From NCBI GenBank assembly GCA_039091335.1, contig JAWCME010000001.1, positions 76,024-118,061 of the forward strand: a stretch of DNA of 42,038 nt, written 5' to 3'. The translations under genes were made by a program, and so were the position numbers. The DNA comes from Candidatus Aenigmatarchaeota archaeon. GTDB lineage: Archaea; Aenigmatarchaeota; Aenigmatarchaeia; CG10238-14; SCSR01. The first letter of the stretch is position 1. Every line of letters begins with the position of its first letter. The notes under the pieces are model-generated. The model saw only the letters and a program-made list of their open reading frames with translations. It was not told the DNA's origin and did no database searches. This document shows positions 7,823 to 18,400 of the stretch, piece after piece.

Positions 7823-7859
7823 ACTACCATAGGATGGTTGTTTATCAAGGTCAGGCAAC
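7823..7859 (-). other. 3' arm of pre-23S processing stem (BHB)
   Basis: GACCU UGAU AAA CAACCAUCCUAUGGUAGU pairs with the 5' arm at 11066-11102. Confidence 0.92.
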
Positions 7860-8024
7860 CTCAGGCTTTTAGTGGCAGCCAGCTGAGTACCTCGCTCGAA
7901 AGCTTGGTACTTACACTGCTGCTCTATCAAGCTTGTAGTCTACAAGGGCCTTTGTCGCTCTTCCGCTCCTTTCGGAGCAGTTGAGCGATTGGCTGTCTAT
8001 TTTTCCGGATGGCTTCGTCCTTAG

Positions 8025-8062
8025 TTAGACAAGTATAGCACTTAGTTTAAGTGCTATACTTT
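8025..8062 (-). other. 23S BHB intron, 38 nt, ~2754/2755
   Basis: Central helix AGGC/GUCU, bulges AUA and AAC, 14-bp intron stem; removal restores GCAUCUAAG. Confidence 0.9.
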
Positions 8063-8067
8063 ATGCC

Positions 8068-8098
8068 TTCCTGCTAATGGAGTTTAAACTCCATTAGT
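8068..8098 (-). other. 23S BHB intron, 31 nt, ~2749/2750
   Basis: Central helix CCUG/CAGG, bulges AAA and AAG, 9-bp stem; removal restores CCUGAAGGCAU. Confidence 0.9.
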
Positions 8099-8229
8099 TT
8101 CAGGACTTATCCATGATGGCGTGGCTGCCCGGCTGCAATCACAGCCGGTACACTAGAGGCCACGGATGGGTGTTCCTTTCGTACTCACCCATCCTTCCGG
8201 TCAGACAGCCAGCACCTCGAGTAGATAGC

Positions 8230-8263
<34 letters not shown>

Positions 8264-8362
8264 AATGTTCCCCTTTAATCAGTGGACACCTGCACCCTTG
8301 GCTGCTACTGCACAGCCAGGAGGGGGAAAGCCGACAGCGACGCACCAACGCGCCGGGTCAAT

Positions 8363-8399
8363 TTATCTCGCTTCTGGGAATCGAAGACTCCATAAAGCT
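8363..8399 (-). other. 23S intron, 37 nt, ~2477/2478 (H89), relaxed BHB
   Basis: Removal restores GUCCACAUUGAC; central helix GUCC/AGAU has one mismatch. Confidence 0.8.
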
Positions 8400-8571
8400 G
8401 TGGACTTTCACCGGCCACGGGCCCATTATCCCCGAGGTAGCTTTTCTGATACCGCTCACTCCCATCAAGGGAAATGAACGTCTCGTTAGCCCATGCTTTC
8501 GCAGCTGGACTTCTCGCTTTGTGAAGTCCAGTCAGGCTGGCTTTTGCGCTTACACTCTACTCAGGATTTCT

Positions 8572-8657
8572 TTAGGGTGATAGAAGTTAATTCATTAGCT
8601 ACCTCACTTCTCATCTTAAATCAATCTGGAGCAGTATAATCATTCAACTTCTATCAT
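8572..8657 (-). other. 23S BHB intron, 86 nt, ~2306/2307 (H84), containing box C/D motifs
   Basis: Central helix AGGG/CCCU, 11-bp stem UGAUAGAAGUU/AACUUCUAUCA; removal restores GGGUCAGAAAUCC. Confidence 0.92.
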
Positions 8658-9662
8658 GACCCTGATGAGCCAACCTTTGGGCACCCTTGATCTCTTGTCA
8701 AGGGTGTACCGCCCCAGCCGAACTGCCCGCCAGATGCTGTCCTCTTTCGAGTTAGCGATTCGGTTGAGGAGGGGTGGTGTTACACTTTCCTCTCAGCTTT
8801 TGCCCGGAGGCTAAGCCTAATAGCGAGTACCACCTACGCTCTGCAACCGCAACCGAATCGCAACATCAAGCTGCAGTAAAGCTCTACGGGGTCTTCGTTT
8901 CCCACTCGAGGTCTCTGGCCTATTCACCAGAACAGCAATTTCGCTGGGTCCCAGCCTAGGACAGCGAGGAAGTCGTTACGCCATTGAGACGGGCCGTCAA
9001 TTAAACGGCAAGGGATTACGCTACTTTACGACGGTCAGAGTTACCGCCGCCGTTTACCGGGGCTTCTTCCTGTTGGACCAGGCTTTCACACACCGGCACT
9101 GGGCAGGCATCAGAGACTGTACACATGCTTTCGCACTTGCAGTCTCCTATGTTTTTGTTAAACAGTCGCTTCCTCCTTGTCACTGCGACCTGCTGTCCCA
9201 CCCCACTTGCCCTGCTTAGCAGGACTTGTGGTTAGAGACTACAGGCACCCCTTCTAGCTAACATACGGGGCCAATTTGCCGATTTCCCTAGGCTGGGTTC
9301 TCCCAACAGGCCATTGCCTTCTCAGCAAGCATACCTGTGTCGGTTCTCGGTACGGTCATGAAGGATCCGTTGAAGTTCTTTTTCACGGACTCCAGGAATC
9401 GGTCGAACTTCGCATACGCGAAGCTATTCCCACTTTCATCTGCTTCTCCTCTTTATGAGACTCCACAGACTTCAGTGGTTAACTTGCGTCGACCTATCCC
9501 GAAGTGTCAGAACTTCAACTTGCGTTGCCGCATGTACCTTCATGGCATGGGAATATTAACCCATCTCCCATTTGACCGGTTCGGTTAAGATCGGTCTTAG
9601 GACCGGCTAACCGCCAGTTGACGAACATTGCTGGCAAACCCTTATGCTTTAGGCCGTTGGGA

Positions 9663-9679
9663 ATTGAGGATAAATATCT
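9663..9679 (-). other. 23S BHB mini-intron, 17 nt, ~1287/1288
   Basis: Central helix UGAG/CUCA, bulges AAA and AUU, stem GAU/AUC, exon stem GUUGGG/CCCAAC; restores loop UGAGAAU. Confidence 0.88.
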
Positions 9680-11065
9680 TTCTCACCCAACTATGCTGCT
9701 ACTCATGGCAGGATCTTCATTTCCTTGCGGTCCACTTGTTCTTACGAACAAGCTTCTACCCACAAGGAACGCCTTCTTACCCTTGCTTTCGCAAGCTTGG
9801 GTATCGGTAACCAGCTTAGTCCCTTCCATTTTCAGGGCAGAAACTCTCGGCGGGTAAGCTGTTACGCACTTTTTAACTGATGGCTGCTTCTAAGCCTACA
9901 GTCCCGCTGTCTAAGAGTTTCCACTCCCTTCTTCACTTAGCTGGTATTTTGGGACCTTAACCCAAGTCCGGGTTGTTTCCCTCTCGGAGGCTGAGCTTAC
10001 CCCAACCCCCTCACTCCGGCCTTCTAAGACGCTAACAGATTCTGAGTTGGACAGGATGGCTGAGCCTTTCGGCCCTTCACCACCCAATCCGTAGCTTTAC
10101 CCTGTTAGCTGTCTCCGGCCAGGCTGTACTGAGGTACATTTCAGAAGGAACCAGCTATCACCAGTTTCGATTGGCTTTTCACCCCTAACCCAAGGTTACC
10201 CGAGTGATTGGACCTCAACATCGGTATCGGGCTTCCATTTCGCTTTCGCGAAACTTCACCCTACCTTGGGTTAGATCAACTGGCTTCTGGTCTTATCCCA
10301 GCGACTTCAGGCACTTTCATACCCAGCACCACGCTCTTAATGAGCTACGTGCTTTTCGCTTTCGCTACGGATCCGGAGCTTAAACTCCTTATCCTCGCCG
10401 CTGAGATAAACTCCCTGCCCCGTTTTTCAGAACGGATGCTAGGACACTGTAAGCTGCTCTTAGTACTATTTCCTCTCGGAAATTTCCTTCAGAGCAGCAC
10501 CTTTCATGCCCTAGCTGACTATCTCCATCTTGGTTTCAGGCTCTTTTCACCTCCCTTTCGGGATACTTTTCAGCTTTCTTTCACAATACTATTGCGCTAT
10601 CGGACTTGGTTAGTATTTAGGGTTGGATGTTGATGCCACCCAGATTCCTGCTCCATATCCAAGGAACAGTACTCAGGATGCTTGGCATTTTCCTTCTCTC
10701 CTTCCTCTACGAGGCTATCACTCTCTAAGGCGGTTCTTTCCAGAACACTTCGAGTCGGAGAGTTAGGAAAGACCCAAGTCCTACAACTCCACATCCTTTC
10801 TTTCTTTTCGAAAGAAAGTTCGGTTTGCCCTTTACCCCTTTCACTCGCCGTTACTCAGGGTATCTCAATTGATTTCTTTTCCTGCGCCTACTAAGATGCT
10901 TCACTTCGGCGCGTTCCTCTCCCTTTCGGGATAGCTCTTTAAGAGCTGGGAATCCCATTGATAGATCCTGGGGTCAATTCCTCCATGCGGATAACCCAGG
11001 CTTATCGCAACTTGGTACGTACTTCATCAGCTAACCAAGCCAAGCCATCCACCAAGTGGAGTGGT

Positions 11066-11102
11066 GTTGCCAGACCTCTTTGACCAACCATCCTATGGTA
11101 GT
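11066..11102 (-). other. 5' arm of pre-23S processing stem (BHB)
   Basis: ACUACCAUAGGAUGGUUG GUCA AAG AGGUC; 18-bp outer helix with 7823-7840. Confidence 0.92.
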
Positions 11103-11114
11103 TTCATCTTTATT

Positions 11115-11176
11115 GGTTTCATATAGACAGTTCGCTCTTCATAATTTCAGACGCTGTCAGTTAAATCATCAACCTC
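11115..11176 (-). ncRNA. Putative dual-guide box C/D sRNA in the 23S leader (predicted targets U2504, A2600)
   Basis: C UUGAUGA (11166-72), D' CUGA (11147-50), C' AUGAAGA (11136-42), D AUGA (11119-22). Guides CUGACAGCG and CGAACUGUCU are complementary to 23S 8331-8339 and 8233-8242. Confidence 0.7.
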
Positions 11177-11214: not shown

Positions 11215-11275
11215 ATGCTCGCAAGGTGTCCATTTCTTCATGTTTTATCAGAAGAAATGAAAAGCTCATCGCTAA
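11215..11275 (-). ncRNA. Putative box C/D sRNA in the 23S leader (predicted target U2552)
   Basis: D' CUGA (11248-51), C' AUGAAGA (11235-41). Guide UGGACACCU (11224-32) is complementary to 8283-8291. C box GCGAUGA and D box GCGA are degenerate. Confidence 0.55.
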
Positions 11276-16642: not shown

Positions 16643-16699
16643 TTTTTCTTAAGGAGGTGATCCAGCCGCACGTTCCCGTACGGCTACCTTGTGGCGACT

Positions 16700-16796
16700 T
16701 TAGGCTCTTGGAAGCTCATAATAAATCAATTCACCTCCAACTCATCATTAATCAGAGTCAAGCCATTTTCTCATATTATTTTAGAGCTTCCAAAAT
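16700..16796 (-). other. 16S BHB intron, 97 nt, between A1492 and A1493, containing a full box C/D set
   Basis: Central helix GGGC/GCCU, 12-bp stem UUUUGGAAGCUC/GAGCUUCCAAGA; removal restores GGGGCUAAGUCG. Confidence 0.92.
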
Positions 16797-16869
16797 TAGC
16801 CCCTCTCGCAAAACCCAAACTCGACTTTCCCAAAAAGAGAAAGCCTTGTTTGGGTTTCACTCGATTGGC

Positions 16870-16906
<37 letters not shown>

Positions 16907-16915
16907 GACGAACGA

Positions 16916-16959
16916 ATCCACGCAATATGAAGCATTTCCAGCCTCTTTTCATAATTGCA
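16916..16959 (-). other. 16S BHB intron, 44 nt, ~1363/1364
   Basis: Central helix UCAU/GUGG, exon helix AACG/CGUU, stem GCAA/UUGC. Confidence 0.88.
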
Positions 16960-17414
16960 TGATGACGTTCGCCTACTAGGGATTCCGGCTTCACGAGGAC
17001 GAGTTACAGCCCTCGATCTGAACTGAGCATGCTTTTAGGGGATTAGCTTCTCCTTTCGGAGTTGCATCCCATTGTGGCATGCATTGTGGGTCGCGTGTAG
17101 CCCAGGAGATTCGGGGCATACGGACCTACCGTCGCCCACACCTTCCTCCCACTTATCGCGGGCAGTCTCCCATGAGTGCACTTCCTCCGGAGAGGAAGTT
17201 AGCAACATGGGATGTGGGTCTCGCTCGTTAACCGACTTAACGGCACGCCTCACGGTACGAGCTGACGATGGCCATGCACCACCTCTCAGCTTGTCTGGTA
17301 AGCCCTTCAGACTGACCCTCATCCTGCTGTCAACCCTGGTAAGATTCCCGGCGTTGAATCCAATTAAACCGCAGCCTCCACCCCTTGTGTGCTCCCCCGC
17401 CAATTCCCTTAAGT

Positions 17415-17470
17415 TAGGTGGAAGAAGTGGTATGTTTATATTAAATTTTTAAAAAAACACCACTTCCTCT
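17415..17470 (-). other. 16S BHB intron, 56 nt, 908/909
   Basis: Central helix GGUG/CACC, exon helix AAG/CUU, 11-bp stem; restores GUGAAACUUAA. Confidence 0.92.
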
Positions 17471-17581
17471 TTCACCCTTGCGGGTATACTCCCCAGGTGG
17501 CCCGCTTAACACCTACGCTCCGGCACTGCAAGCTCCCGAGAAGCCTGCAACACCAAGCGGGCATCGTTTACGGCTAGGACT

Positions 17582-17662
17582 TTCCCGCACGAGTAGGAAA
17601 TCCTAGCTTGTTGGGTCTTAAATTTCTTCATATTTTATCAGAAGATACTCCCAACCTCGTGT
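17582..17662 (-). other. 16S BHB intron, 81 nt, 801/802, with internal D'/C' motif
   Basis: Central helix CCCG/CGGG, stem CACGAG/CUCGUG; restores CCGGUAGUCC. Confidence 0.92.
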
Positions 17663-18400
17663 ACCGGGGTATCTAATCCCGATCGCTCCCCTAGCTTTCG
17701 TCCCTCACAGTCAGACCCGTTCCAGCAAGACGCCTTCGCCACAGGTTGTCCCCTTTGGATTAAAGGATTTAACCCCTACCCAAAGAGTACATCTTGCCTC
17801 TCCCGGTCTCAAGCCCGAAAGTATCCTCAGCAAGCCCTCCAGTTTACTGGAGGATTTCACCAAGGACTTTTCAGGCCTGCTACGGACTCTTTAGACCCAA
17901 TAATCGTGACCATCACTTGGAGTGCGGGTATTACCGCGGTGGCTGGCACCCGTCTTACCCACTCCTTATTCGCCTTCCTGTTTTCAGAAGGCAAAAGCTC
18001 TTGCAGAGCAAGAGCACTCCGGGTTCCCTTATCTCGCGTTAGCGAATTGTAAAGTTTTCGCGCCTGCTGCGTTCCGTAGAACCTGGACTCATGTCTCAGA
18101 GTCCATCTCCGGGCTCCTACTTCCATAGCCCGTAGGCGTTATCGCTTTGTTGGTTCGTTACACCAACAACAGGCTGATACCATGCAGTCCCATCCTTAGC
18201 CGCAATTGCTTTTGTTGTTGGAACCTTCCAGTATCCAACAACTATGGAGTATTGAGCTCAGTTTCCCGAGTTTATCCTCCAGCTAAGGGTAGGTTGACTG
18301 CACATTACGGAGCAGTTCGCCGAGGGCTTTCCCCTCTCGACTCGCATGGCTTAGTCGAACCCGGATAGCAATGGTCTCTGGCGGGATCAACCAGAATTTT

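Follow-up and report, generated by a model that had tools for sequence, protein, structure and literature searches.

The stretch analysed here (the window) comprises 42,038 nt of a Candidatus Aenigmatarchaeota genome of 570 kb, 33% G+C and 87% completeness, and carries the 16S (16652-18397) and 23S (7849-11076) rRNA genes 5.5 kb apart, both on the minus strand. According to the matching contigs, its relatives belong to Candidatus Aenigmatarchaeota and are mostly hot-spring MAGs. Comparison of the 16S gene with 40 relatives revealed inserts of 81, 54 and about 95 nt. The 81-nt insert lies in helix 24, at a site that dozens of relatives read straight through and where others bear homologous inserts. 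Its ends can form a 3-4-3 bulge-helix-bulge, which is not the minimum-energy fold. The 54-nt insert (17416-17469) is an AU-rich hairpin without C/D-type boxes and is absent from most relatives. The features of the helix 24 intron are as follows.

17581..17661 (or 17582-17662), minus strand: 81-nt bulge-helix-bulge intron in 16S helix 24, at E. coli 801/802 or 802/803; the splice point is ambiguous by one base
17662-17664 and 17581-17583, minus strand: bulges GUA and AAA of the bulge-helix-bulge, read from the sequence
17584..17587, minus strand: CGGG, 3' strand of the 4-bp central helix, pairing with exon-1 CCCG at 17665-17668, read from the sequence
17656..17661, minus strand: CACGAG, 5' strand of stem P1 beside the 5' bulge, pairing with 17588-17593
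17588..17593, minus strand: CUCGUG, 3' strand of P1, from homolog comparison
17650..17655, minus strand: GUUGGG, 5' strand of stem P2 at the base of the candidate K-loop hairpin in short forms, pairing with 17610-17615
17610..17615, minus strand: CCCAAC, 3' strand of P2, from homolog comparison
17596..17607, minus strand: GCUAGGAUUUCC, with complementarity to the 3' splice junction and the beginning of exon 2; most homologs retain GCUAGG

Both stems vary in a compensating manner among relatives, e.g., CAUGAG/CUCAUG or GUUGAA/UUCAAC for P1, and, for P2, a closing pair that is G-C, C-G or A-U and an inner pair that is U-A or A-U. The stretch GCUAGGAUUUCC (17596-17607) can pair with 17573-17586, in competition with the bulge-helix-bulge. 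A pairing of a U-rich intron stretch with the 3' bulge showed mixed covariation and is not claimed. With regard to splicing, the genome encodes the RtcB ligase. The splicing endonuclease domain (PF01974) was not found in the 87%-complete assembly; it is present in 25 of 25 relatives searched, so the gene probably lies in an assembly gap. The rRNA and tRNA genes of this genome contain introns despite this absence of PF01974 from the assembly.

The central hairpin of the intron is capped by a 24-nt element that recurs in the leader of the 23S gene. The two copies had been noticed in a sequence-only reading of the window, and they are indeed identical at 23 of 24 nt and lie where that reading placed them, both on the strand of the rRNA genes; the sole mismatch, U versus C, falls in the loop. 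The related copy that it mentioned at 11136-11150 is present too, with CUGA, a 5-nt loop and UGAAGA. The elements and the RNAs that contain them are:

17622..17645, minus strand: intron copy of the 24-nt element, with two flanking U-A pairs, D' box, 7-nt loop and C' box; boxes and pairs conserved in 36 homologous introns
17638..17641, minus strand: D' box CUGA of the candidate intron K-loop; the 36 distinct introns have CUGA (28), CCGA (7) or AUGA (1)
17625..17631, minus strand: C' box AUGAAGA of the candidate intron K-loop; UGA core in 36 of 36, with position 5 covarying with D' position 2
11232..11255, minus strand: 23S-leader copy of the element, the internal D'/C' K-loop of leader sRNA-1, with D' at 11248-11251 and C' at 11235-11241
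11219..11272, minus strand: leader box C/D sRNA-1, spanning C box through D box; its terminal stem covaries among orthologs, which occur in 4 families of the order
11119..11172, minus strand: leader box C/D sRNA-2, with its K-loop at 11136-11150

A search for the 24-mer with up to 3 mismatches returned the two known copies alone. A fortuitous match in AT-rich sequence might be considered for a genome of 33% G+C, in which the loose pattern CUGA...UGAAGA occurs about 26 times, near the chance level. However, shuffled sequence yielded a mean of 0.01 matches to the 24-mer, none of 100 shuffles gave two or more, and the element is kept at both sites in other genera; a chance origin of the repeat is refuted by these shuffles and this conservation, and its probability is negligible. 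A scan of the genome with the full C/D grammar returned the two leader sRNAs and two doubtful matches.

Leader sRNA-1 is a complete box C/D sRNA, laid out as C box, 14 nt, D', loop, C', 12 nt and D. Its D guide forms 9 Watson-Crick pairs with the 23S of this genome, and the D guide of sRNA-2 forms 10 with the 23S peptidyl-transferase region. Among 40 regions upstream of 23S genes from the order, four families share the unit of terminal stem, C box, spacer, CUGA, loop, UGA(A/U/G)GA, spacer, NUGA D box and closing stem. The spacer before the D box ends in a conserved GGACACC core in sRNA-1 orthologs, and the terminal stem covaries (AGC/GCU, GGC/GCC, GAGGC/GCCUC, GUGGC/GCCAC). In a sister family (L091, L093, L095, L102), the guide directed to the peptidyl-transferase centre, with the core CGAACUGUC, is the D' guide of sRNA-1. 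In the family of the host it sits in the second sRNA instead, and the D' spacer of sRNA-1 has diverged to a stretch rich in pyrimidines, with partial pairing to the 3' half of the same sRNA.

The 24-nt element is most probably a D'/C' K-loop, i.e., the docking half-site of box C/D RNPs (probability about 0.75). Both copies consist of CUGA, 7 nt and AUGAAGA, the C' box fitting RUGAUGA at 6 of 7 positions; two sheared G.A pairs are possible, continued by U-A, C-G and two U-A pairs. The proposal that CUGA-loop-AUGAAGA is a K-loop motif is supported by the comparison with relatives, in which boxes and pairs proved to be conserved. This comparison covered 36 distinct homologous K-loop introns at the helix 24 site, all from Aenigmatarchaeota genomes or metagenomes, retrieved by exon anchoring and by a pattern linking the exon end to the D' side; three bacterial matches to the intron pattern were judged to be chance. 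All 36 introns have GA in both boxes (the D' side was fixed in the search pattern for 28 of the 36, the C' box in no search pattern), and the loop varies in sequence and in length (4-9 nt). The pair between D' position 2 and C' position 5 is U-A in 20, C-G in 7, U.G in 5, U.U in 3, U.C in 1 and C.A in none, a covariation with a Fisher value of 9e-5 that is uncorrected for relatedness and has few independent events behind it. CCGA is invariably paired with UGAGGA among the introns. The change from U to C in the D' box has at least two origins on a UGAGGA background, between near-identical intron pairs, and one further origin in a leader sRNA-2. The pair between D' position 1 and C' position 6 is C-G in 34 introns and A-U in 1, and the pair after it is U-A in 34 of 36.

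Archaeal L7Ae binds the K-loop half-site to start assembly of the Nop5-fibrillarin RNP; as a predicted K-loop, the element is therefore a likely L7Ae site. The machinery is encoded in the genome, with an L7Ae gene (L063:380-748, minus strand; TIGR03677, 180 bits; E = 2e-45 to the L7Ae of solved C/D RNPs) and adjacent genes for Nop5 and fibrillarin on contig 28 (170 and 249 bits, respectively). An Rfam search gave nothing above threshold; weak matches of the leader (E 0.16-9, mostly C/D-box families) and one weak match of the intron (E 2.7) are not counted as evidence.

The minimum-energy fold of both copies is a plain hairpin in which UCUUC and GAAGA enclose an 11-nt loop (with 5 bp in the intron copy and 9 bp in the leader copy), and this register is intact in 30 of 36 introns. 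The element might thus merely stabilise the intron arm and the leader, with no protein site at all. This is very unlikely, and the K-loop register with AUGAAGA as the C' box is preferred, because the hairpin is complete in just 8 of 28 sRNA-1 and 1 of 23 sRNA-2 leader K-loops, which nonetheless keep the boxes, and because the sole intron with a different upstream guide loses the hairpin and retains the boxes. In addition, where leader orthologs have a canonical UGAUGA, it is likewise separated from the guide core by 3 nt and from the D box by a 12-nt spacer. A plain hairpin would leave unexplained this 12-nt spacing, the invariant GA dinucleotides and the linked CCGA/UGAGGA changes. In most relatives, GAUGAAGA would permit a second K-loop register that employs the GA directly preceding the C' box; it was provisionally set aside, as the host genome lacks GAUGAAGA and the register is incompatible with the 12-nt spacing.

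The intron of this genome differs from the leader sRNA in its surroundings. As the sequence-only reading had remarked, outer C and D boxes are lacking: 12 nt before D' there is no C box, and 12 nt after C' no D box; the stems P1 and P2 are found at these positions instead. The 8-nt match to 16S positions 17893-17900 that had been put forward along with this does exist, yet little meaning can be attached to it, since about two such matches are expected by chance, it forms the 3' strand of an intron stem (P2) and its sequence differs in relatives; with no D box after it, it was rejected as a D guide. A different guide becomes visible in fuller members of the family. In 16 distinct long-form introns, the C' box is followed by a 12-nt guide to 16S G785-A794 (E. 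coli numbering) and by NUGA. The target adjoins the intron, just upstream of it, and pairs over 10-11 bp. The geometry is that of a canonical C/D RNA, and the fifth-nucleotide rule leads to U788. Terminal C and D boxes occur in these 16 relatives and are missing from the intron of this genome. The long forms also contain a second, weaker D-loop-C K-loop after the D guide. In this genome, CCCAAC, the partner of GUUGGG, stands in place of the D guide and second K-loop.

By this comparison, the intron of this genome is a reduced form of a guide-bearing family that has kept the predicted K-loop and a truncated upstream guide. The suggestion of a decaying guide thereby gains support, as the fuller homologs carry a canonical 12-nt guide and a D box after the same C' box. 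The retained part is composed of the element and the following features.

17642..17652, minus strand: 11-nt guide-like stretch GGGAGUAUCUU upstream of the candidate K-loop, complementary to the exon-1 790 loop with a 2-nt bulge
17667..17674, minus strand: exon-1 target AGAUACCC in the 790 loop of helix 24, target of the upstream guide-like stretch

In this genome, GGGAGUAUCUU pairs with the 790 loop through 6 + 3 bp across the 2-nt bulge; where relatives lack the two extra bases, the pairing is contiguous over 8 bp. Part of GGGAGUAUCUU is also used in stem P2. For this upstream stretch, the fifth-nucleotide rule would select the U equivalent to E. coli U793. The RNAalifold consensus of the short forms includes a duplex between this stretch and the exon-1 790 loop, in columns that never vary and show no compensating changes, hence with zero covariation support.

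With the D guide and second K-loop gone, the intron K-loop may be regarded as a vestige of a lost guide that is now without function. Such loss would be in line with the many relatives that are intronless at the site; moreover, a copy of the 790-loop (U788) guide in a C/D context was not found elsewhere in this assembly. Nevertheless, a mere vestige is improbable: in 9 distinct short forms from at least 5 genera, GUAUCUUCUGA and AUGAAGA are unchanged, both boxes and GUAUCUU being invariant, while the loop and the adjacent stem vary and neighbouring stems compensate. Invariance of the boxes and GUAUCUU amid such variation points to purifying selection.

Other introns occur at or near this site. 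A distant family of the class has a 45-nt intron without a K-loop at the same 16S position (L156:207-274), which indicates that the helix 24 site is reused by unrelated introns. A different intron family is inserted within the 790 loop, behind GAUA and a few bases upstream of this site (L005, L011, L012, L125, L148, L153); its L125 member seems to run on into an open reading frame. In one relative, L041, both introns are present, with a 9-nt micro-exon between them.

The 790-loop guide is not confined to introns. The pattern of C' box, 790-loop guide and D box gave 15 matches in 118 genomes versus 0 for the reversed control, and 7 of the 15, located outside the 16S gene, are canonical stand-alone C/D sRNA genes. 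Such stand-alone genes occur also in genomes whose 16S site is intronless. The guide is thus maintained both as part of the intron and as a separate gene. In one genus of a sister family (L223, L225, L226, L224), it is the D' guide of a canonical stand-alone sRNA; in another family (L218-L220), where C/D modules are arrayed in tandem, it is a D guide. In the 23S of another family, an 84-nt intron (L035, L036, ~1466-1549), at the site between bases 1214 and 1215 of the 23S of this genome, contains an entire C/D sRNA whose K-loop is exactly CUGA-UAAAAGA-UGAAGA. The core of its D' guide, ACGACGGUC, is also present in a third family, in the tandem sRNA that stands alone there, so guides are reassorted between genes and introns.

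That guide modules move between contexts is thus supported for the 790-loop guide, present in both introns and stand-alone genes; the copying between leader and introns proposed in the earlier reading gains no such support in this genome, its own pair standing barely above cross-genome pairs. Recent copying or gene conversion between the leader and intron K-loops within this lineage would account for the rank of that pair, the first (95.8% identity) of 1080 intron-by-leader K-loop pairs with a mean identity of 71%, and both copies lack the G found just before the C' box in most relatives. However, cross-genome pairs reach up to 91.7%, so that the excess amounts to a single base, and 17-20 of the 24 bases are already common to the nearest relatives within the intron context as well as within the leader context. 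The similarity also ends at the edges of the element, and the loop UAAAAGA is widespread, being the commonest in both leader sRNAs and occurring in three 16S introns and in the 23S intron of another family. A 17-mer with this loop is shared by the 16S intron, both leader sRNAs and the 84-nt 23S intron. Given cross-genome identities this high, the two copies are alike chiefly through a K-loop consensus common to the clade; recent copying, although possible, is unlikely and needless as an explanation.

The role of the lone K-loop in this intron could be that of a half-guide for U793, that of an aid in folding or splicing, or both. In the pre-16S transcript, L7Ae would dock on the K-loop, possibly joined by Nop5 and fibrillarin in a half-complex, and the upstream stretch would pair in cis with the 790 loop. 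This pairing would either direct methylation of the ribose of the U793 equivalent or simply hold helix 24 open, after which the RNA would refold to the bulge-helix-bulge and the intron would be excised. Single-site C/D complexes are active, yet unspecific as to the methylated position (PMC1635284). The intron of this genome has no second K-turn or K-loop, which weighs against this reading. A further and rather unlikely proposal is that the helix 24 intron serves in cis as a checkpoint of assembly. The lone K-loop would be occupied by L7Ae, perhaps along with Nop5 and fibrillarin, and the antisense stretches would then keep both the 790 loop and the 3' splice junction in a fold that is non-native and cannot be spliced; the bulge-helix-bulge and a functional 16S would form only after the RNP has acted or left. 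If this were true, the K-loop rather than the guide would be the part kept by selection.

This tiny genome places C/D-type modules in the 23S leader and in several rRNA introns, and its relatives provide an evolutionary series in which one 790-loop guide occurs in four states, namely, a stand-alone sRNA gene, an intron beside the target, a duplicated double K-loop, and the reduced form. In the reduced state, that of this genome, the predicted K-loop and guide stub alone survive, apparently under selection. The series makes testable whether a lone K-loop recruits L7Ae to pre-rRNA and influences its folding or splicing, as well as how guide RNAs come to reside in introns, the rule for vertebrate snoRNAs.

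The closest known structure is the K-loop (C'/D' motif) of archaeal box C/D sRNAs. The element shares with it the D' box CUGA, a short loop, a C' box of the RUGAUGA type and the possibility of tandem G.A pairs with a short second stem, and the leader copy is flanked by a 14-nt spacer towards the D' guide and a 12-nt spacer towards the D guide. It differs in having A at C' position 5, giving a Watson-Crick U-A pair versus the canonical U.U, and, in the intron of this genome, in standing alone on a hairpin without a partner C/D K-turn. The literature searched yielded no published C/D guide in an rRNA intron; the archaeal intron C/D guides described there are those of pre-tRNA-Trp alone. In Euryarchaeota, the pre-tRNA-Trp intron holds a box C/D guide (Clouet-d'Orval et al. 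2001, as described in PMC7994747). Both are bulge-helix-bulge introns with C/D-type boxes and a guide to their own host RNA near the splice site, and in both the guide pairing and the splicing fold are mutually exclusive; in the present case, the host is 16S rRNA, and the intron of this genome has just a truncated guide besides the internal K-loop. In human, K-loop RNAs that derive from introns and are bound by 15.5K suppress excision of the host intron, according to a preprint (bioRxiv 10.64898/2026.08.03.742641). They have in common with the archaeal intron an intronic K-loop for an L7Ae-family protein (bound in human, predicted here), no obvious methylation target and a proposed action on host splicing. 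They are different in that the introns are spliceosomal and the K-loops derive from terminal C/D motifs, and in that an effect on splicing is reported for them and is speculative for the archaeal intron. Lastly, K-loops of the same style occur in the 16S intron at 16700-16796 (CUGA-UUAA-UGAUGA) and the 23S intron at 8572-8657 (UUGA-UUUAAGA-UGAGAA) of this genome. These two introns are complete C/D sRNAs, whereas the helix 24 intron is a reduced one, from a family whose guide alternates between an intron and a free-standing gene.
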